Source: a virus
Lineage: Duplodnaviria > Heunggongvirae > Uroviricota > Caudoviricetes
Reading direction: 5' to 3' (one strand)
Length of the DNA stretch: 53,176 bases
IMG/VR virus record: IMGVR_UViG_2737471835_000006
Made by a program: the position numbers and the translations under genes. This document shows positions 17,336-53,003 of this stretch, piece by piece. Under the pieces are notes generated by a model. The model worked only from the letters and a program-made list of their open reading frames with translations, did not search any database and was not told where the DNA came from. Numbering within the stretch: position 1 is the stretch's first letter; each line of letters starts with the position of its first letter.

Positions 17336-17565
17336 AATCGAACTCCCACGGGACGGCGGCGTCCCGTACTCAGACCGAGCTGTGATTTCAGCTCGATAAT
17401 GTACGTTCGGAGCTGTTCAATACTCGCCTGTGAGTATTGATAGCTCCGGTTATTTCCCGCTGAATCGCCGTGAGACAGCGATACAGTCGATCTACCCGTT
17501 AATAATTTGTGCAGGGCAATTTCAGCTTCCAGCAGCCGTTCTGTTAAAACCTCGCGCGACATCAT
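17332..17565 (-). CDS. Head-tail joining protein, lambda gpW family
   Basis: 77 aa; ALHKLLTGRSTVSL ... LRTYIIELKSQLG parallels lambda W; 4-nt overlaps with terminase and portal. Confidence 0.8.
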   Translation of the reverse strand: MMSREVLTERLLEAEIALHKLLTGRSTVSLSHGDSAGNNRSYQYSQASIEQLRTYIIELKSQLGLSTGRRRPVGVRL

Positions 17566-19526
17566 GAGCTCCCTCCGAGCATTCTGGCCATCTCCTCGAG
17601 AGACAGTTTGTTTTGTGATTTTTTCCGTTGCTCAGCGAGCGTCTCGAGATTGAGCTGGAAACGAATTTTACTGATACGTAGCGCTGCCAGCGCGTATACC
17701 CAGCAGTCGAGCGCCTCATTTCGCCGGCCCTGGTTGTCCCAGCGATAAACGACGCGACCGTTAATCAGTTTCGGGATCAGAACTTCAGAGACGAGCTGTT
17801 TTGCCTCTGTCGTGCCGAATATTTCGTCGTCGTTGGGAAAATGAATCGCACTTGGTGTCGCCGATTTAGAATCGGGTTCCAGCGGCAGGCGCATTGCGAG
17901 CAAATCTTTTGCCGTATCAGTACCGATTAACGACAAATAGACTTTATTCGCGTTACGTGTACGCGGCATATTTACGACTGGCTGACCGTATGAACTCGCA
18001 CCTTTAATTGGAATGACCCACAGCGGACCGAGTTTCAGCGAGCGGTTATAAACGACCTGCGCATCTATACCACCGGTATCCCACGCCCAGCGACTGACGC
18101 CGATTGTGGTCCCGTCGCTGCGCCGGTATTGTTTGCGAATCACTCCGTCGACGCGCTGCAGCGTGTCCTCCTCGTCGTAGCGACCGAGGACGATTGTTTT
18201 ATCAATCAGCCAGCACTCCTCCTCCACTCCCCAGCCCCACACGTAACACTCGTAGCGACCGGACGTCTGAGAGTCGATGCCGCCGGTCAGATAAACAACA
18301 CCGTCAGGAACCTGGCTGGCGTATTTTTCCCGGCGATTAACCAGAATATCGTGCTCCAGCTGCTCGCTGGCTACGTCACTCCAGAGTTCGCCGAGCGTCG
18401 TGTTATGAAACGTCTTTTCTTTGAGCGGATCGCCCTTCGCTTTCAGCCACTCGCTGACAATCTCGCCCCAGCCGTCGAGATTCAGCGAATACATGGCGTT
18501 TATCACGATCGCCGCGTGTTTCGGCGCGCGAACGACACCACCGTCGTGATCAAAAAAACGAATACCGTCCCGCGTCCAGGTGCAGTCCTCTGCTATCCAG
18601 CGCCCCGCGAGCTCCATTTTTTCGAGATCGCGATAGTAAAAATGCTCAGGACAGTGGCAGCACTGGTAATACGCGGACGACGATTTCGCCTCATTTGTCT
18701 GCAGGCTATTATCCCATTTGAGGCCATATTCGATGCCGTCGAAACCAAATACCAGGACCTGCTCCTCGCCACAATGCGGACATTTCAGGTAAAAACGAAA
18801 CGTCAGGTCAGCGGCATCCTCCAGCATTTCAATATGACTTTTTCCGGTGACGGTTGGCGTCGAGCCGAAAATCGCCTTCGGGTACGCTGCCCCTTTAATT
18901 CGAACGAGCGCCAGTTCGATGGGCGAGCCCTCGCCTTTGCCTTTTTTGGCAACTTCCAGCGGCCAGCCGTCAACTTCGTCACCCTCGACAACCTGTTTCG
19001 TTAGTCGCCGGAAATTTCCTGGTGCACTCGCGCCGCGAAAATCAATAATCGCGCCGCTCATTTCTTTACGCTGGAGATTGTTACGCTCGTTGCTTTTATC
19101 CCAGTCGGGGAAAATTTTCTGAATCACCGGCATTTCGGCGATAGCGGGGTCAACCTCGTCGGCAACAAATCCATCCGATTCGTCATCGATAGGCTGATAG
19201 ACCACGGCACTACGTTTTTTGTGCTCAGCGAAATAGAGCAGCGCCGCGACGAGTATTTTTGTATAACCGAGACGAGCTGATTTGCGAACAGACACGATTT
19301 TTATCGCGTCGTTAGTCATCATATTGAGCATCACTACCTGGACCGGCTGAGTCGTCCAGTGGCCAGCGATGTGGCTGGAGCCCTCAGGGAGATAAAAATA
19401 TTTATCAGCCCACTCAACCCCCGTCATCGGTATCGTCACGCGCAAGGGATTCAACCCTGTCGAGATCGCGTTCGATATCGCTGACATCGTAATCGCTGAA
19501 GTCGACTCGTATGTCTGCCAGTTCAT
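17562..19526 (-). CDS. Terminase large subunit, lambda gpA family
   Basis: 654 aa; VEWADKYFYLP, CPHCGEEQ, KTFHNTTLGELW and VIPIKGAS blocks match lambda gpA; start may be a downstream Met, reducing the overlap with the small subunit. Confidence 0.9.
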   Translation of the reverse strand: MNWQTYESTSAITMSAISNAISTGLNPLRVTIPMTGVEWADKYFYLPEGSSHIAGHWTTQPVQVVMLNMMTNDAIKIVSVRKSARLGYTKILVAALLYFAEHKKRSAVVYQPIDDESDGFVADEVDPAIAEMPVIQKIFPDWDKSNERNNLQRKEMSGAIIDFRGASAPGNFRRLTKQVVEGDEVDGWPLEVAKKGKGEGSPIELALVRIKGAAYPKAIFGSTPTVTGKSHIEMLEDAADLTFRFYLKCPHCGEEQVLVFGFDGIEYGLKWDNSLQTNEAKSSSAYYQCCHCPEHFYYRDLEKMELAGRWIAEDCTWTRDGIRFFDHDGGVVRAPKHAAIVINAMYSLNLDGWGEIVSEWLKAKGDPLKEKTFHNTTLGELWSDVASEQLEHDILVNRREKYASQVPDGVVYLTGGIDSQTSGRYECYVWGWGVEEECWLIDKTIVLGRYDEEDTLQRVDGVIRKQYRRSDGTTIGVSRWAWDTGGIDAQVVYNRSLKLGPLWVIPIKGASSYGQPVVNMPRTRNANKVYLSLIGTDTAKDLLAMRLPLEPDSKSATPSAIHFPNDDEIFGTTEAKQLVSEVLIPKLINGRVVYRWDNQGRRNEALDCWVYALAALRISKIRFQLNLETLAEQRKKSQNKLSLEEMARMLGGSS

Positions 19527-19980
19527 TCAGGGCTATCGCCAGCTCCTCTCGTAAAACACTGCTCGCCTCCTGCGGCATTTCAGGCCACACCTTTTTCAAC
19601 CGTGGTGGCCACGATTCGACACGGGTACGTAATTCAACTGCGACGCGAGATACAGCGACGCTGATTAATTCAATTGGCGCGTAGCGTTTAGCAAGAATGC
19701 GGCGTTTCACGCGAGCCATCAGGATTCGCTCCTGTCGTTCCTCATTTTTCAGCCACTGCTCGCGATTTTTTTCGGGAGAATTGTCCCCCACTTCCGGTTC
19801 GTCAGTACCAACTGTGTCGCGTCTATTACTCCGGAGATAATGAATATAGAAATGGCGCCAGGCGTCTAGCTCCCAATCACCACGTCCTTGTGGGACTGGT
19901 GCTCCCGGAAGTTTTGCGAGATCGCGCAGACGACGATCTGATAGCAGTAAATGTGCTGCGACCTCAGCCTGACTTGCCAT
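19414..19980 (-). CDS. Terminase small subunit (Nu1-position, N-terminal HTH)
   Basis: 188 aa immediately upstream of and overlapping the large subunit; N-terminal helix-turn-helix-like segment, acidic C-terminus. Confidence 0.55.
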   Translation of the reverse strand: MASQAEVAAHLLLSDRRLRDLAKLPGAPVPQGRGDWELDAWRHFYIHYLRSNRRDTVGTDEPEVGDNSPEKNREQWLKNEERQERILMARVKRRILAKRYAPIELISVAVSRVAVELRTRVESWPPRLKKVWPEMPQEASSVLREELAIALNELADIRVDFSDYDVSDIERDLDRVESLARDDTDDGG

Positions 19981-20352
19981 TAAAAATCCTCACCGGAACC
20001 GGAAATACATAAAATGAAAAAATACTAAAAATGAGTGAGTTTTTGCGCGTCTACCGACCCTCGGTGTTTTGAATTTCGGAAAGGACCCGCGACCAGGGGG
20101 GCTATATCCCTTTCAGGACAGGAATCGGGGGCTCGCATCAGGTTCATCAAACTCGACTGTAGCCTCGCGGCGTACTTGTTTGCATACATCAGCTTTGTGT
20201 ATCTCATTATCAGCGTAAGCTTTCACTTTGGCAGCGAGCCATCCTTTTGCGCTGTATCGATAGACTACCGAACAAAGTTTTCCCTATGTGTATATATCTT
20301 GAAATTATTGATATTCTTACAGAAAAGCAACAACCATGAGCACACAAAAAAA

Positions 20353-20598
20353 ATGAACAAAGAAAAAATCGAAGCCTTAATGAGCGTAATATTAAAAGAA
20401 GCTGACCCCAAAAAATTTCCTGAGAAGTTATCAGAGGACGCCATCGTATCTTTTTATCGTGCGAACTCCTCTTACCTACATTGTCCAACTTTAAGAGAAT
20501 GGTTAAGCGGCGAAGCAGAGCCTTCAGATGAGATACTTGAGGAGATTATGATTCAGAACAACTGGCGTGCAACTAAATGGTCAAATCGGTTACCTTAA
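20353..20598 (+). CDS. Hypothetical small protein (moron-like, AT-rich)
   Basis: 81 aa from the internal ATG of the 187-aa six-frame ORF (an upstream ATG is followed by an in-frame stop); followed by a hairpin terminator. Confidence 0.3.
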   Translation: MNKEKIEALMSVILKEADPKKFPEKLSEDAIVSFYRANSSYLHCPTLREWLSGEAEPSDEILEEIMIQNNWRATKWSNRLP

Positions 20599-20866: not shown

Positions 20867-21208
20867 ATGTCGTCTATGCTTTTAACTCGAACATTCAATG
20901 AAGAGAAATGCTCTATGGTTATTGGTATGCAGGAATCAAAAAATTGCCCTGTATGCGGCTCTGATGCCACATGGACAAATCACGATACGTGCTGGAAAAT
21001 TCATTGCAGTGGTTTTTGCGGTGATTTTTTAATCACAACCATTACGATAAATTATCTGAAGGGCGATGCACTAAGGCGTCTTGATGCCATCGATCTATTA
21101 AAAGAGCCAACAACACTCAAGACACCTTTAACAAACAAAATCCTTGCTGAATATGCACGTACAAAACATCCCGTGCACATCTTTGAAGGTCACTATCCGG
21201 GCTATTAG
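20867..21208 (+). CDS. Hypothetical Cys-rich protein
   Basis: 113 aa with CPVCGS ... HCSGFCGD spacing suggestive of a zinc-binding fold; no SD seen. Confidence 0.3.
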   Translation: MSSMLLTRTFNEEKCSMVIGMQESKNCPVCGSDATWTNHDTCWKIHCSGFCGDFLITTITINYLKGDALRRLDAIDLLKEPTTLKTPLTNKILAEYARTKHPVHIFEGHYPGY

Positions 21209-42673: not shown

Positions 42674-42854
42674 ACTGACCGGCTACCAGTTCCCGTCAAA
42701 ACAATGCGGCGCCCTGACCCGTGCCGGGATCTCTTATGTAAAACGCCGCGATGGGCGACCTCGCGTCACATGGACGCATGTAAACGCTGCGCTGTCCGGA
42801 GCAAGGTCCGTGCAGATTGCCGAAGAAGAACAACCAAATTTTGATGCAATCTGA
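42639..42854 (+). CDS. Putative excisionase / recombination directionality factor
   Basis: 71 aa immediately upstream of the integrase with overlapping stop/start. Confidence 0.4.
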   Translation: MNDLLNDEELVELTGYQFPSKQCGALTRAGISYVKRRDGRPRVTWTHVNAALSGARSVQIAEEEQPNFDAI

Positions 42855-43882
42855 TGAGCAGAACACGAAAAAGCGCGGAAGATAATAAGCTGCCACCCCG
42901 CGTTTATAAAAACAAATACAGCTATTATTTCAAACCAACGCCCCGAGAGTGTATTACGCTGGGTAAAATTAATGATCTGTCAATTGCTCAGGTATGGGTG
43001 AAATACGAAGAGATCCTGAATGATGCTATTGATGTCATGACGTTCAGTAAACTCTGGAACAAATTTCTCAACAGCACCTACTATCTGGAACTCGGTCAGC
43101 GTACACAAAAGGATTATCTGCAGCACCAGAAGAAATTACTCGCCGCGTTCGGGAAAATGAAAGCCGACAACATAAAACCTGCTCACGTGCGGCTGTATAT
43201 GGACAAGCGGGGGCTGAAAAGCAAAACACAGGCGAACCATGAAAAAGCCAGTATGTCGCGAGTATTCCGCTGGGGATACGAACGCGGATACGTAAAAGGG
43301 AATCCATGCCAGGGCGTCAGTAAATTTTCCCTCAAGCCCCGCGACTACTATTTCACGGACGAGGAATATATCGCAATTTATCAGGAGGCATCTCCCGTTT
43401 TACAGTGCGCGATGGAGATCGCCTATCTGTGCGCCACGCGGATCGGCGATATACGAAAGCTGACGTGGGATCAGGTTATGAGTAAGGGTTTGTTTATCCA
43501 ACAGGGTAAGACTGGCAAAAAGCAGATCAAACAGTATTCAGAGCGACTGACGTTCGCACTTGAGCAGGCGAAATCGTTGGGAGGACAACATTTCGTGGTC
43601 TGTAACAAATATGGCGGGCAATACAGTTATACCGGATTTAACGATATCTGGCGTAAAGCCAGGGCGGCGGCAAGTGAAAAGCTGGGCTACCCGATTACGG
43701 GAACGTTTCACGATTTAAAAGCGAAGGGGATCTCAGACTACGACGGAAGCAGTAAAGAAAAGCAGTTGTTCTCTGGTCACAAAACTGAGGCGCAGGTGCT
43801 GACGTATGATCGCAAACCTGCAGTTTCTCCGACTCTGGATATTCCGGTGCTGGATGTCACAGTTCTGAGCAGAAACCCGTGA
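42854..43882 (+). CDS. Tyrosine site-specific integrase
   Basis: 342 aa; phage-integrase architecture with C-terminal catalytic region (HDLKAKGISDY ... LFSGHK ... LTYDRK); adjacent to a tRNA-derived att core. Confidence 0.8.
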   Translation: MSRTRKSAEDNKLPPRVYKNKYSYYFKPTPRECITLGKINDLSIAQVWVKYEEILNDAIDVMTFSKLWNKFLNSTYYLELGQRTQKDYLQHQKKLLAAFGKMKADNIKPAHVRLYMDKRGLKSKTQANHEKASMSRVFRWGYERGYVKGNPCQGVSKFSLKPRDYYFTDEEYIAIYQEASPVLQCAMEIAYLCATRIGDIRKLTWDQVMSKGLFIQQGKTGKKQIKQYSERLTFALEQAKSLGGQHFVVCNKYGGQYSYTGFNDIWRKARAAASEKLGYPITGTFHDLKAKGISDYDGSSKEKQLFSGHKTEAQVLTYDRKPAVSPTLDIPVLDVTVLSRNP

Positions 43883-44163: not shown

Positions 44164-45266
44164 ATGTTCATTAATATACACCACACAAATAATTCACAGA
44201 TATTGCAAAATGCTCAGGTCAAAAATAAAATAAAACGTGTTGATCGTCTGCTCGGTAATGAATCTCTTCATCACGACATCCCCCTGATTTTCATAAACAT
44301 TATTTCCATGCTGACGAGCAAGCTGTCACTGTGTGTCATCGCCGTTGACTGGAGTGGATACCCCTCTCAGGAGTATCACGTACTCCGCGCCAGCCTGATT
44401 TGCGATGGACGTTCGATTCCATTGCTGAGTTGGATAGTTCCTTCGGAAAAACAGCAAAATGCTAAGATACAGCAAGCCTTTCTTAATACTCTTTCCGAAG
44501 CGGTAAACCCAAAAGCAAGGGTAATCATCGTCGCGGATGCAGGGTTTCAGAATGCCTGGTTTCGGCACGTAAAATCACTCGGCTCGGATTTTATTGGCCG
44601 GATACGAGGCAATAAACAACTACATCTGGCAAGAAAAGGGGAATGCTGGTTCAGGCGTCAGGAATTACAGGCCAGTAACAAACCTGAATATCTGGGGCCG
44701 GGGACGCTTTCCCGGGCGGAATACGCCCGTTGCGATGGTCATTTTTATTTGCACAAAAAAGAGCCGAAAGGCCGGAGAAATAAACGTTCGCGTTGTGGTA
44801 TAGCCAGACCATCACAGATAAAAGATGCCAGGTCGGCGGCAAAAGAACCATGGTTAATATTCAGCAGCACAGATGACTTTAAACCGCGAGAAATCATGAA
44901 GTTATACAGCCACCGAATGCAGATTGAGCAAAACTTCAGGGATGAAAAAAGTGAGCGTTTTGGGTTCGGTCTGCGAGCCAGTTGCAGCTGTTCGGCAGGA
45001 AGAATGCTGGTACTGAGCCTGCTGGCAACACTGAGCACAATAGTGCTGTGGCTTATTGGCTATCACGCTGAAAATCAAGGAGATATCAGGCCAACAGCAT
45101 TAAAACGCAGCGGGTAATCTCGCATCTGACGTTAGCGGAGAATGTCTTACGACACTCCCCGCTAATTTTAAAACGAACGGTGCTAAGCACCATTCTTAAT
45201 CACCTCGCCAGAACCTACCAGAATATGGTGTTGGTTTATTAGCGCTGATTTATGGGGATCCCTCAG
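44164..45266 (+). mobile_element. IS4-family (IS10-like) insertion sequence remnant with disrupted transposase
   Basis: 317-aa ORF 44164-45117 collinear with the IS10 transposase core (KRVDRLLGN, VIIVADAGF, SAAKEPWL, YSHRMQIEQNFRDEKS) but short at both ends; terminal repeat CTGAGGGATCCCCATAAAT (reverse strand) at 45248-45266; no left end found. Confidence 0.6.
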
Positions 45267-47112: not shown

Positions 47113-48837
47113 TTACATTCTCTCACTACGACATGTTATCAAAAAATAATCTAGTAACACGGGATCTAAAGCATCCAACCTTGGCATTTCAGTAGAGTGA
47201 GAAAAAGTCTGCATTTGCATTTCCTGTCGTATGGATTCCCCATCACCTTGATGTATATAATAAATAGAACTGTTCCCGTATAATAAAATTTTAGGTTTCG
47301 AGAACATTCTAAATAAAGAAAATTCCGATGCTTCTTCGATAGCTTTTTGCATACTTCTGTCAACATTTTTCCAATAAATGCTTAAATTTTCGCTGGGTGC
47401 TTTTAGTTCATTAAGTTCAGATACTTTTTCAATACCAGTCTGATGGAGTTTATACTTTGCAAGCAATCGCTCACATAGATGTTCCTGGATGCCGCTATCA
47501 ATGCATGATTGAAAGAAGCGTTTAAGTTCTCCAGGGTAACTTAAAAGCAAAGGGAAGTACAAAATACCCTCAAGCTTTTCAATTGTGTTTTCCGAAGCCA
47601 CATCTGCAATAGAAAGAATAAATTTTGCAGTTTCAACTGGCCGTGTAAATAACCATCCTATAGCCTTACGACTAATAAAAACTTGCTTTATATCATTATC
47701 CAATAAATCCAATTCCGCCTTTAGTTCAATTTCCTCACCCGTAGCATCATGAAGTAAATCTAAAATACCATGACAAAATTGTTTTTCTCCACCCAGAAGC
47801 CATTTTGTAATGATGTGATTAAGTAGTTCTTGATGCTTACTTATTAATTCATTAGAAAAATAGTCCAGCGATTTAAATGTAACACCTGCTATTAAAGTTG
47901 ACTCCAATAATTCCACAGCAAGCGAGTACTTACTTTTCTCAGCTAACATGACCAATATATAATCAATATTACCTATAATACCTTTATGATCACAGGACAC
48001 ATTAGTTAATTTCTTAAGCATGATATACAGAATACTATCTGGAAGAATCTCCGATTGAAATGCAACAATACTTGAAATTATCTGAAGAACCTCTGTAGAT
48101 TCTCTCTTAACAAAAGCAATTAAAAACTCTTCTATTTGCGGCCAGTAAGATGGAAACCTTTTCCCAAATTGGAGTGCAGACATCAATATCGACGCACAAC
48201 AATCATTATCACTCTCGCTAACACCATTGTTTCTAATTTGCTCCCAAATTAAGTTAGCCTTTGTCTCATCAATATCTAACTGTCCCAAAGTAAAATAGCC
48301 TTGATTTCTGATCATTGCATTTCTATTAGAAATGAGTCTTTCTGTCATCTGGATAGCTGTTATGACACTATCTGCGTCGTAAGCAAGGAGCGAGCTTGAA
48401 AGAAAAGGGGCATATGCATTCAAATCACTTTGTGCAAGGATAAACTCAACACTATCTCTAGAGCGAGATGCTTTCACACTACAGTAACGCTCATAGGCTT
48501 TATAGATTGTACCAATAGTTGCCCCTCTCCCGACCTGTTGCACCAATTGAACCAGACAATGTAGAACATCCTCAATTCTTGCATCTATCAAAGGTAGCGC
48601 TTCTTCAAACGTTTGTAGAATAGTAAAAAAATTACTACCGTAGGATTTTTTATCAATACCTTTTACCATTTTGAGGATATCAATCACACCAGTGTTGTGG
48701 AGTTCAGCTAGCGCTAATGCTAAACTTCTTTCTTCGGTATGTAATTCTTGAGCATATAAATCACAAACTAGAGCAAGCAGATCTTCTGCCGTTTCACTTG
48801 CATTCAGCAACTGGCCTCTTGTTTCTTCTAACGACAT
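47113..48837 (-). CDS. Uncharacterised large alpha-helical protein, first gene of a two-gene operon
   Basis: Start placed at ATG 48837 (MSLEETRGQ) with GAGG about 9 nt upstream; the track's 48852 start is a GTG. No P-loop or other catalytic motif seen; AT-rich. Confidence 0.5.
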   Translation of the reverse strand: MSLEETRGQLLNASETAEDLLALVCDLYAQELHTEERSLALALAELHNTGVIDILKMVKGIDKKSYGSNFFTILQTFEEALPLIDARIEDVLHCLVQLVQQVGRGATIGTIYKAYERYCSVKASRSRDSVEFILAQSDLNAYAPFLSSSLLAYDADSVITAIQMTERLISNRNAMIRNQGYFTLGQLDIDETKANLIWEQIRNNGVSESDNDCCASILMSALQFGKRFPSYWPQIEEFLIAFVKRESTEVLQIISSIVAFQSEILPDSILYIMLKKLTNVSCDHKGIIGNIDYILVMLAEKSKYSLAVELLESTLIAGVTFKSLDYFSNELISKHQELLNHIITKWLLGGEKQFCHGILDLLHDATGEEIELKAELDLLDNDIKQVFISRKAIGWLFTRPVETAKFILSIADVASENTIEKLEGILYFPLLLSYPGELKRFFQSCIDSGIQEHLCERLLAKYKLHQTGIEKVSELNELKAPSENLSIYWKNVDRSMQKAIEEASEFSLFRMFSKPKILLYGNSSIYYIHQGDGESIRQEMQMQTFSHSTEMPRLDALDPVLLDYFLITCRSERM

Positions 48838-49135: not shown

Positions 49136-49720
49136 TTACATTGTGTCTGGTTCTTCCGGCCACTCAATATCAGGTGCAGTTGTTGTATTAACACGGTTCA
49201 GCAACACCCGATACTTCTTCCAGGCTTCCAGCAACGAGGTTTCTTCCTCCGTTGCAATTTCCAGATCTGCAGCATCCTGAAGCGGCGCAATATGCTCACT
49301 GGCTACCTGCATCAGGCTGTTTTTTGTTTCTTCCGCCTCCCGGATCCGGAACAGTTTTTCTGCTTCTGCATCTTTCACCCAGGCTGTGCCGTTCCACTTC
49401 TGATATTCCCCTCCCGGCGACAACCAGGTAACATTTTCCGGTAACGGACCGAGTTCAGAAATAAATAACGCGTCGCCGGAAGCCACGTCATAAACCGTTT
49501 TACCCCGATGGTCTTCAACGAGATGCCACGATGCCTCATCACTGTTGAAAACAGCCACAAAGCCAGCAGGAATATCTGGTGGTGCAATATCGGTACTGTT
49601 TGCTGGCAGACCTGTATGAGGCGGAATATATGCGTCACCTTCACCAATAAATTCATTAGTCCCGACCAGCAGATTATAAATTTTTATGGTCCGTGGTTGT
49701 TCACTCATTCTGAATGCCAT
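49136..49720 (-). CDS. tfa: Tail fiber assembly protein, lambda Tfa
   Basis: 194 aa, near-identical over its length to lambda Tfa as recalled ([18 protein letters not shown] ... [51 protein letters not shown]). Confidence 0.85.
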
Positions 49721-52700
49721 TATGCAAGCCTCACAATATAGTTAAATGCGATGTTTTTGACGGTGTTTTCCGCATTACCAGCAGCGTTAACGGTGATGGT
49801 GTGTCCATGTGAACCAATCGCAACGGAGTGCGTATGAGCACCAATACCGACAGTATGCGCGTGTGCACCTGCAGATGCTGCTGTGCCGGACAGTGAGTGG
49901 CTATGATTACCATCTGTACTGGTATTAGCTAACCACCCCGTAGACATACCTACTGAGCCTTGTACACCCCAGGTATTTTGACCTGAGCTTGTATAACCAT
50001 ATTGATAAGTATCTTTAAAAACACTGGGGTTAAATCGACGGCCATCTCTATGGCTGTGATTACCAGCTGCATTCGTGCTGCCACTTAAACTATGAGTATG
50101 CGCACCAGTGTTATTCGTGGATTTAGTGCCGTAATCAAACGATGATGTGGTTTTCGTACCCAAATCCGTACTGGATACGCTGGCGCTGTGGGTGTGCGAT
50201 TTAATGCCGTCCTGTTCCTGAGACAATACGGCACGACCACTGGCGGGCTTGCCCTTAATCGTCCAGCCACGCATATCAGGGATCACGCCTGACGGATAAG
50301 CGGCTGCAAGTTTCGGGTAAGCAGATTTGTCAAAAGTCTGCCCCTGCATCAGGGCATAACCAGACGGAACGGTATCTGATGGCCACGGGATTGGTGCGCC
50401 GACTGGGTAGCTTTCTGGTGGAAGATTTTTCGAGGTATAAACTTCTGCCCAGTCTTCCTCAAAACCATAACCGTCTCTTGAAGAACGGTAGAACAGACCA
50501 CCATTTCTGTAATGCGCCTTCATCTGCAGGGTCCGGCAACTTCCGACTCCGGTATAGAAGTTAACCAGAATATAGCTGTCGCCAGAGCGGGTGACATTGT
50601 AAGCGCCTGATTCGGCATTCCATGGAACGCCCCCATCCGCATCGGCATATGTATCCGTTGCCCTTCTGGCAAAAGCAGCCACATGCGCGGCGGTTAAAGT
50701 GATATCAGTAGAACCATCAAATGGAACACCGGATATTTTTCTTGCAGTCTGAAGTTTTGTAGCAGTTGCAGCATTACCAGTGGTGTTCTGATTACCCGTA
50801 GTGTTTACACCTGGAAGGTTAATATTTGCAGAACCGTCGAAAACAACTCCACCGATAGATCTTGCCGTCTGCAATTTCGTGGCTGTACTTGCATTACCAT
50901 TCAATGAACCAGTTAATCCACCTGTAACAGACAACGGACCTGAAACTGTTCCTCCGGTTGTTGGCAGTGCTCCAATATCTGATGGTGTAGGTTTCTGATG
51001 TGAGCTATACATCGTATAAACAACACCATAGGTAACGCTGGAAGGCTTACTCACTGAATATGTTGGCGAGGTATAAACAGAAACTGACGCATTTGCAGTA
51101 CAATCCCAATGGATATTTACACTCGTCGCATAATTGCCAATCTCAACGTAAATATCATATGTATCGCCGGATGTGTTGATCCAGGCGAAATTCGTTAATC
51201 CGACGGCTGTACGCTTCCACAAAGCCCCGGTAATTCCTTTGGGGTTTCCATTGCCTGCTCGTAGAACCAGTTCTGAAATGCCTGCCTGATGTGGGGAGCC
51301 GACGTTGTAACCAGCGCCACCAATCAATGCGATGTAAACGATGGAACTCGCTTGTGGCATGGTAACCGTAGCCAGTTTGAACCACCCAGCCCCGCCAGAG
51401 AAAGACATCGTTACTGAATTTAAAGTACCAATATCTTTCGGCGTTAATGTTATATCCGCAGTCAGTGCTTTTCCGTTAACTTTTCGGTTAGATGGCACCC
51501 TGCTATTCGCATTGTCATTGGCTGCTTTAACTGCTTTTGGCGTTGCGGCCAGCGATTCACTGGTGCTATCAACAGCACTGCTAAGTTTCACAACACCTTT
51601 AGTTGTAAGGCTTGCGTCTTCCATCGCAACTGCACCGGCAATCTCTTCAGCACGATCAGCAGCAGTTTCCGCACGGGTCGCAGCGGATTCAGCAGCAGTT
51701 TTGCTCTGAGATGCTGCCGTCGCACTGCCTGCCGCCTCTGTTGCTTTCGTGGATGCCGTCGCGGCGCTGCCCTTCGCTGCTGACGCCTGTCTGGTCGCCT
51801 CATCTTTTGAAGCAGACGCAGATGATGCCGATGACGCCGCCGAACTGGCGGACGATGCGGCAGCCGTTTTTGAGGATTCTGCGCTGGTTTCCGACGCTTT
51901 CGCGTTCGTCTCGGATGTCTTCGCTGCGGAAGCAGACCTCGCTGCTGCGCTGGCCTGTACAGCGGCTTCGCCAGCCTTCGTTGTGGCTGTTGAAGCGGAC
52001 GATGCAGCACTTTCTGCCGATTTTCCGGCGGCGGTGGCACTGGCTGAGGCCTGCCCGGCACTTGTTGACGCGGCACTGGCAGACGACGCAGCCGCTGTTT
52101 TTGAGCCTGCCGCAGCTGAGGCACTCTGTCCCGCTGCCGTTTCAGAAGCCTTGGCGTTCGTCTCGGACGTTTTTGCCGCCTTCGCAGAATTTGCTGTCGC
52201 CGTTGCCGAGGAAGCTGCGCTGCTGGCGCTCGAGGCTGCGCTCGTTTCTGATGATTTTGCCGCCTCTTTTGAAGCCGACGCATCCCGGGCTGAGGTGGCA
52301 GCTTCTGACGCTTTCGTGGTCGCGGTGGATGCTGAAGTGGCTGCTGATTGTTGTGACGCTGCCGCATTCGTTTCTGACGTTTTTGCCGCAGCGGCACTGG
52401 TGGCCGCCGCGCTTTTTGAGGACTCTGCAGCGGCAGCACTTTTTGATGCTTCAGTGGCCTTTGCTGATGCCGTTCCTGCGCTGGAAGACGCTGACTGAGC
52501 CGACGAAGCGGCCTGTCCGGCTGACGTGCTGGCTGCGCGTGCTGAGCCTGCAGCATCAGTCGCATGGGTTGCCGCCTCACGGGCTGATGTGCTGGCATCG
52601 CCGGCTGACTTCTTCGCGGCTGCCGTGTTCTGTGCCACCGCGGACGCGTTACGCGCCACCTCTTCCACCATCAGTTCAAAACGGCGCAGTGCCTCAGGAC

Positions 52701-52995
52701 GGGCATCATCCTCCGTCATGGCACCGAGAAAATCATTCAGCGTACCGGGTCGGGAATCTTCATACACGGTGATGGTCCCGGCATGTGACGGCGGGAATCC
52801 TTCCACCAACAGAATAACGCTGTACTGACCGTACTCAACGTCCATGCTGTAACGCCCGGCTTCATCCGGATTTTCTGAGGCCAGCGTGTTCACCACCACC
52901 GTGGTGCTGTTACGTTTTGCTTTCAGCTGGATTGTGCAGTTCTGTACCGGTTTTCCTGTGCCGTCTTTCAGTACACCTGAAATCTTTACTGCCAT
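49720..52995 (-). CDS. stf: Side tail fiber protein, lambda Stf family (long form)
   Basis: [27 protein letters not shown]-terminus, Ala/Ser-rich repeats, and His/Gly-rich C-terminal region ending [11 protein letters not shown] as in lambda Stf; ATG start placed 6 nt inside the track ORF (first codon there is GTG). Confidence 0.9.
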
Positions 52996-53003
52996 ATTCA
53001 CCC

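Follow-up and report, generated by a model that had tools for sequence, protein, structure and literature searches.

We located the probable cos site of an approximately 44-kb E. coli prophage, whose head module is lambda-type and whose contractile tail is P2-type, at positions 19792-20089 on the minus strand of the window (the whole stretch of DNA analysed, 53,176 nucleotides), and we put the probability of this reading at about 85%. The site appears to be an ordinary lambda-type cos whose cosB is of the N15 "simple" type with a different recognition sequence. The sequence anatomy, an exact cosQ match, the conservation and spacing of the elements, the co-variation of two of them, and the presence of a gpA-type large and a Nu1-like small terminase subunit were observed directly. 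The result places the cos site of an E. coli prophage family and predicts which cohesive ends and which recognition sequence the family has, which could be used in prophage annotation, in setting genome start coordinates, in spotting satellites that borrow the cos site, and in building cosmid-like vectors.

A cos site was expected in this region because terS, a gpA-family terL, and the genes for gpW, the portal and the protease lie on one strand. The terL gene (17562-19526, minus strand) encodes a 654-aa large terminase subunit with the Pfam domains GpA_ATPase (PF05876, 3.1e-47) and GpA_nuclease (PF20454, 3.6e-63), and its product is the enzyme expected to nick cosN. It is followed by genes for gpW, a lambda-family portal, and an S49 gpC-like protease. 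The terS gene (19414-19980, minus strand) encodes a 188-aa small terminase subunit that matched phrog_57 (E = 1.1e-38). The preliminary description had called this gene Nu1-like, and the label holds as remote homology: hhalign of 5 TerS family members against 6 Nu1-type proteins aligned residues 3-160 to 4-169, including the helix-turn-helix and the wing (96.3%, E = 1.6e-9). It does not hold as membership of the Pfam family, as TerS had zero Pfam matches even at E <= 10 (the gathering threshold of PF07471 was not reached) and zero NCBIfam matches. BLASTP aligned the C-terminal half only, to lambda Nu1 (E = 2e-4) and to N15 gp1 (E = 6e-5), and a TerS sequence search against solved structures returned nothing significant. 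By these comparisons, TerS appears to be a remote, full-length Nu1 homologue outside the Pfam Nu1 family. It is colinear with, and 45% identical to, the TerS of Aeromonas phage phiARM81ld (A1 alignment). In E. coli CFSAN061769, which carries a 100%-identical copy, RefSeq gives terS as a 101-aa C-terminal fragment (WP_223718779.1), leaving the DNA-binding half of TerS and the cos region unannotated, although the complete ORF encodes 188 aa.

The site lies in non-coding DNA, with terS on one side and a divergent small gene (20344-20598, plus strand, phrog_5191) on the other, and with the lysis genes upstream. Two open reading frames overlap it. The 60-aa ORF at 20025-20207 (minus strand) had no family match, and the match of the 187-aa ORF at 20035-20598 (plus strand) to phrog_5191 was limited to the last 84 codons, 20344-20598; both were rejected as genes over the site. 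Since the overlapping ORFs lack family support and the similarity among relatives ends at cosQ, the site is taken to be non-coding. No sigma-70-like promoter was found in 19981-20110, and folding of 20060-20160 gave z = +1.39, with no RNA structure or terminator at the motif. A promoter or RNA structure does not explain the conserved elements.

The preliminary description had proposed a cos site within 20035-20110 from a minus-strand motif likened to the lambda cosN region. We confirmed the 22-mer, CCCCTGGTCGCGGGTCCTTTCC, at 20078-20099 on the minus strand, about 100 nt from the terS start codon (19980) and so just upstream of the small terminase gene, as had been claimed. The proposed location was also borne out, as both cosQ (20082-20088) and the predicted cosN (20048-20059) fall inside the interval, but the motif itself is cosQ and not cosN. 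Short-word BLAST of window positions 20110-19981 against the joined lambda ends (from J02459: right end ...CTTTACGGGTCCTTTCCGGTGATCCGACAGGTTACG, left end GGGCGGCGACCTCGCGGGTTTTCGC...) gave as the best lambda match of the region the 13-mer CGGGTCCTTTCCG (20077-20089), identical at 13/13 positions to lambda 48472-48484 (E = 0.002). Relative to the predicted top-strand nick, the heptamer GGGTCCT (20082-20088, minus strand) occupies bp -29 to -23, and GGGTCCTTTCC occurs once in the 53-kb window. In lambda, GGGTCCT at 48473-48479 is cosQ, the 7-bp element needed for the terminal cut that ends packaging, and it is reported to be highly conserved among lambda-like phages (PMC4669245). The 3' half of the 22-mer matches the lambda cosQ region exactly, indicating that the conserved half is cosQ; the motif therefore consists of cosQ and 11 non-conserved bases on its 5' side.

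To compare the site across relatives, we used an alignment of five TerS members to query genome and viral collections. The results showed that GGGTCCT was invariant in 17 aligned cos regions of gamma- and alpha-proteobacterial relatives, lambda and yong2 (E. coli, Enterobacter, Aeromonas, Photobacterium, Shewanella, Pseudoalteromonas, Pseudomonas, and alpha-proteobacteria including Azospirillum), and was present in nearly all of the approximately 40 non-redundant IMG/VR relatives with enough upstream sequence. Three IMG/VR relatives with a TerS about 86% identical (L020, L021 and L024) had wholly unrelated upstream DNA, and similarity started exactly at GGGTCC. This pattern indicates that the 5' half of the motif (CCCCTGGTCGC) is lineage-specific and that cosQ forms the edge of the conserved module.

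These data bear on whether the 22-mer is itself the cosN homologue, with cutting inside 20078-20099, which we consider very improbable. What the 22-mer has in common with lambda cosN is a single 8-mer, TCGCGGGT, corresponding to lambda bp 12-19, and against the 1.2-kb lambda cos junction this match is at chance level (blastn-short E = 1.7; local score 9 with a 2-base gap). The TCGC part that contributes to it varies, the relatives having TTGTGGGTCC, CAACGGGTCC, CTGCGGGTCC or CAGCGGGTCC, so the claimed likeness to cosN was dropped and the alignment rejected. In addition, the conserved half of the motif matches the lambda right end 30 nt before the nick, and it is about 29-30 nt downstream of the 22-mer that the deposited phiARM81ld and yong2 ends align.

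In phage VP882 (L050/L049) and in one Pseudomonas lineage (contigs L043 and L105), GGTACT(T/C)CC replaces GGGTCCT and stands at the same distance before a lambda-like cosN as GGGTCCT does elsewhere; it may be a variant cosQ. The VP882 record has GGCGGCAAA at both ends. VP882 was rejected as an in-family experimental anchor, as its TerS belongs to a different family, though its ends are lambda-like. Contigs L022/L065 and L081 from IMG/VR end 4 nt and 2 nt inside cosQ, respectively (GGGT|CCTTTCC and GG|GTCCTTC), and these two independent ends may reflect chance or an assembly artefact. IMG/VR contig ends were also discarded as candidate physical ends, zero of them coinciding with the predicted nick.

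By sequence comparison, we predicted a cosN cohesive end with a 12-nt 5' overhang, 5'-GGTCGGTAGACG-3', at 20048-20059 on the minus strand, 29 nt downstream of cosQ toward the terminase gene. We place the predicted nicks at 20060|20059 (minus strand) and 20048|20047 (plus strand). The predicted core reads GAG|GGTCGGTAGACG|CGC, and the wider context (20040-20066) is CACCGAGGGTCGGTAGACGCGCAAAAA, the window reading CACCGAG GGTCGGTAGACG CGCAAAAAC. The nick register, a prediction good to about 1-2 nt, was derived from four independent anchors: the phiARM81ld left end, the yong2 junction, a symmetry axis, and the coincidence of a TTTCCG sequence with lambda R3. The phiARM81ld record ends ...GGGTCCTTTTTTGCACCTTTTTCCCTTGCG and starts GGGCGTTAGACC|CGCATG (GGGCGTTAGACC CGCATGAAATCACTCG), with 15/19 ungapped identity to the window at the junction. 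The record of Hafnia phage yong2 ends ...GGGTCCTTTCTGAGTTTTGAAACACCGAG GGGGCAGCGACA (...GAAACACCGAG GGGGCAGCGACA) and restarts with CGCGGG (CGCGGGAAAC). Its cosQ-to-nick segment (29 nt) is the same as in the window; 12 nt and a CGC come next, and the junction of the record is equivalent to lambda bp 12|13. The deposited ends of both phages may have been set by analogy to lambda rather than determined, and a literature search found no paper describing yong2 among its two hits.

The symmetry axis was clear in relatives. In close relatives, the best twofold axis lay 35 nt from the cosQ start, which corresponds to the predicted bp 6|7, and in relatives with 30-nt spacing it lay at 36 nt. The Enterobacter mori overhang core is a perfect palindrome, GTCTG|CAGAC, about the predicted axis, whereas in this copy the twofold symmetry is weak (3/6 internal pairs). 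The overhang GGTCGGTAGACG equals the lambda overhang GGGCGGCGACCT at 6/12 positions overall and at 5/6 positions of the left half, the half reported to be under selection (PMC4669245). It is followed by CG and preceded by AG rather than the conserved CG. With the symmetry this weak, the register could be 1-2 nt off. Partial matches to the 112-nt site were found in about 70 other E. coli genomes; 3 of these were examined (STEC/lambdoid prophages), and each had an ordinary Nu1-type terS 190-230 bp downstream and a near-identical cosQ...ACACCGGGGGTCGGTAGACGCGCAAAAAC. A perfect inverted repeat, ACCGA-GGG-TCGGT, at 20047-20061 is centred on the predicted bp 1. Its absence from L024, Enterobacter mori and yong2 suggests that it is probably incidental, and the terminator candidate with a terminator-like score at 20052-20066 (plus strand) was rejected as this lineage-specific palindrome.

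Between cosN and the next conserved element lies a 42-bp spacer (20006-20047, minus strand; 76% A+T) at the same position as lambda I2, with a conserved CGC at its start and a conserved CTC within. No IHF consensus with <=1 mismatch was found in 19981-20110, which includes the stretch between cosN and this element. The element itself is a tandem, TTTCCGGTTCCGG, at 19993-20005 on the minus strand (bp 55-67), present as the sole exact copy in the window. It places TTTCCG at bp 55-60, as in lambda R3 (CGTTTCCG, bp 53-60); R3 spans bp 50-65 in lambda, with contacts at bp 55-63, and bp 48-59 in N15, and the cosN-to-R3 distance has been shown to be critical (PMC9026076, PMC4669245). Relatives have the tandem as TTTCCGGTTCCGG, TTTCCGGTTTCCGG, TTTCCGTTTCCGC or CTTCCGGTTCCGC, and the cosQ-to-tandem distance stays at 83-86 nt in the gamma-proteobacterial relatives, also in those with an altered tandem-to-ATG distance. 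Its position and conservation argue that the tandem is the R3 equivalent and the likely anchor site of TerS, where the winged helix-turn-helix domain would bind.

The terS start codon lies at bp 80 from the predicted nick, compared with bp 191 in lambda and bp 89 in N15, so a lambda-style R3-I1-R2-R1 array cannot fit upstream. A complex cosB (R3, IHF site I1, inverted R2, and R1 upstream of terS) is therefore not present, and one R3-position element fits, giving the N15-type simple arrangement of a single such element with an early terS start. The packaging specificity of N15/Monarch is not shared, the R3-position sequence being TTTCCGGTTCCGG and not like GAGGTTGTTGTT. In lambda (L006), an inverted 12/13 match to the tandem, TTTCCAGTTCCGG, occurs at bp ~611-623 near the Nu1/A overlap (E = 0.44) and is probably due to chance.

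Headful (pac) packaging, with an incidental similarity to cos elements, is extremely improbable. We found no evidence that supports it, TerL is of the gpA family and the portal is lambda-type, and cosQ, cosN and R3 keep a conserved arrangement and spacing.

An inverted copy of the tandem core TTCCGGTTC was found inside terS. This rR2-like element, GAACCGGAA, lies at 19792-19800 on the minus strand (bp 260-268), is the reverse complement of the core, and corresponds to terS nt 181-189, encoding E61-P62-E63 in the TerS linker. The alternative GAGCCAGAG is synonymous and also encodes Glu-Pro-Glu. In a five-sequence alignment, the linker varied at every residue but Pro62 and Glu63, and CCGGAA was found at the aligned Pro-Glu codons in 10/14 loci first compared. 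An inverted R3 copy about 200 bp distal within terS, as in N15, is thus present here, and most relatives conserve it at the aligned codons. A further direct TTCCGG at terS nt 71-76 (19905-19910) is unique to the window locus among those compared.

We then asked whether the upstream and internal elements vary together. In the Vibrio/Photobacterium group, the upstream GGTTTCCGGTTTCCGG and the internal AAACCGGAAACC give an inverted match of 12-13 nt, with GGTTTCCGGTTT in both; in L096, GGGATGTCCAGGTCCACC and GGGGTGGACATCCC give a match of 10 nt, with GGGATGTCCA in both; and in L109, ATGTCCGTGTCCGG and GCGGACACGG give a match of 9 nt, with CCGTGTCCG in both. For 12 clade representatives, the summed longest inverted match of each locus with its own partner was 110, compared with a permuted mean of 87.9, and this value was reached in 23 of 200,000 permutations. 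A conservative per-locus null of synonymous recoding gave P = 0.03-0.7 for the intragenic site. As these single-locus tests are weak, the support for the intragenic site comes from the co-variation and not from any one locus.

A single R3-position site with an inverted copy about 200 bp away in terS has until now been reported as a special feature of N15. We tentatively propose, at slightly less than even odds, that a simple cosB with an intragenic inverted copy is an ancient layout and the norm in a large clade of small terminases remotely related to Nu1, in phages of E. coli, Enterobacter, Aeromonas, Vibrio/Photobacterium, Shewanella and Pseudomonas. If so, the co-evolution of both sites would imply that the intragenic site is functional and that TerS bridges or wraps about 200 bp of DNA, and the Pro-Glu of the TerS linker (always CCG-GAA) would be conserved for DNA-level and not protein-level reasons. 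The family-wide co-variation of the R3-position element and the intragenic site is comparative evidence of selection on N15-type rR2 sites, a question left open by N15 genetics.

The conserved elements, chiefly the TTCCGG tandem that precedes the start codon by 12-25 nt, might instead serve transcriptional or translational control of the late/terS operon. The tandem does stand at a near-constant 23-27 nt from the ATG in most relatives and is followed by A/T-rich DNA and a Shine-Dalgarno sequence. However, 19981-20110 lacks a sigma-70-like promoter, and in Pseudoalteromonas, Roseomonas and Azospirillum, where the start is shifted by 24-70 nt and the ATG lies 49-96 nt from the tandem, the tandem stays with cosQ. 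It also occupies the lambda R3 position (bp 55-60), and the inverted copy 200 bp away in terS co-varies with it, as in the N15 layout of R3 and rR2. We therefore regard a control signal as distinctly unlikely and retain the tandem as the R3 equivalent.

Judging from homology to lambda and N15, and given the anatomy and conservation of the sequence, packaging might proceed as follows. The winged-helix N-terminal domains of TerS would bind the tandem TTTCCGGTTCCGG (bp 55-67), acting as the R3 equivalent of a simple cosB as in N15, and the inverted copy within terS (bp 260-268) would act as an accessory site. Bound TerS would position the gpA-type TerL on cosN, where TerL would make nicks 12 bp apart and leave the 5' overhang GGTCGGTAGACG. 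Translocation of the DNA would run in the terS-to-tail direction and stop at the next cos, where cosQ, 29 bp before the nick, would be needed for the final cut. We infer where the nicks fall, that TerS binds both the tandem and the intragenic copy, and that this prophage copy is functional.

Compared with lambda cos, the site has the same gpA-type TerL, element order and cosQ heptamer with 13 exact nucleotides, a predicted cosN that is G-rich, 12 nt long and flanked by CGC, the TTTCCG core at bp 55-60 (R3), and a TerS that is a remote homologue of Nu1; the cosQ-to-nick distance is 29 nt here and 30 nt in lambda. It differs in having no room for I1, R2 and R1 upstream of terS, in lacking a detectable IHF consensus, in an overhang unlike that of lambda at 6/12 positions, and in a TerS under the Pfam Nu1 threshold. 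The likeness to N15 cos lies in the single R3-position element (bp 55-67 here, bp 48-59 in N15), the terS start (bp 80 and bp 89), and the inverted copy in terS about 200 bp distal (bp 260-268 and bp 249-260). In N15, the rR2 within gene 1 (bp 249-260) is non-essential and has been proposed as accessory, while the single R3 is critical (PMC4669245, Feiss et al.). The recognition sequences are unrelated (TTTCCGGTTCCGG here, GAGGTTGTTGTT in N15), TerS is weakly similar to gp1 in its C-terminal half, and the inverted pair is exact at 9/9 positions here but matches at 9/12 in N15.

Among phages, phiARM81ld (KT898133) and the PhAER phages have the same TerS family and the same combination of a lambda-like head with a myovirus tail. 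In phiARM81ld, the tandem TTTCCGGTTCCGG is identical, the cosQ core is GGGTCCTTT, terS starts at bp 79, and the record begins at the cosN homologue; the differences are a cosQ-to-nick distance of 30 nt (29 here), the overhang GGGCGTTAGACC, and a linear record, whereas the element here has an integrase gene and similar sequence on E. coli chromosomes. The yong2 record (MZ516527) has a near-identical cosQ-to-cosN segment (GGGTCCTTTCTGAGTTTTGAAACACCGAG, 29 nt) with 12 nt and CGC after it, but its overhang is GGGGCAGCGACA, its terS lies about 130 bp from the nick, and it lacks the TTCCGG tandem. E. coli phage-inducible chromosomal islands likewise combine a lambda-like cosQ and cosN at conserved spacing with a cosB of one R3-position element (PMC9026076). 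These islands have no terminase of their own and redirect the helper TerS via Rpp (PMC9026076), whereas a complete terS-terL-portal-head-tail module is present here.

Finally, we considered whether the site, although a genuine cos by descent, is a non-functional relic in a defective prophage, which we judge unlikely. Two observations could be read in this way: the closest deposited phage, vB_EcoM-705R4 (94% identity), is a 27-kb partial record whose start is not at cos, and the RefSeq terS is truncated in the identical copy. On the other side, terS, terL, gpW, the portal, the protease and the checked tail genes are full-length frames with family matches; the tail end of the module is uninterrupted in the window (tail protein X, a gpD-like protein and a tail fibre); and an integrase gene is present at 42854-43882. 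The prophage region was found in 444 of 5,426 complete E. coli genomes, and in 443 of the 5,426 (about 8%), including O25b:H4-ST131 strains, the cos site is near full-length, its elements intact and 95-100% conserved. A CRISPR spacer against the terS start also suggests that infectious relatives exist. This spacer covers 33 nt (19953-19985, TTTTAATGGCAAGTCAGGCTGAGGTCGCAGCAC) with a 100% match in E. coli MFDS1006657 (NZ_CP073589.1), where it is the first spacer next to cas2e in a type I-E array, indicating that at least one E. coli strain acquired immunity to the phage family.

Past the integrase, a DDE transposase gene and a second tail-fibre gene of 1,093 aa (phage_tail_N, Collar), at 44164-45117 and 49720-53001, belong to an adjacent mobile element or prophage remnant. 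Two small genes, 20344-20598 (plus strand) and 20867-21208 (plus strand), sit between cos and the lysis cassette and point in the direction opposite to the late operon. The product of the first belongs to phrog_5191, of unknown function, and the second has a weak match to the Lar restriction-alleviation family (PF14354, 1.8e-5), below the Pfam cut-off. Their position is moron-like and resembles where bor lies in lambda.
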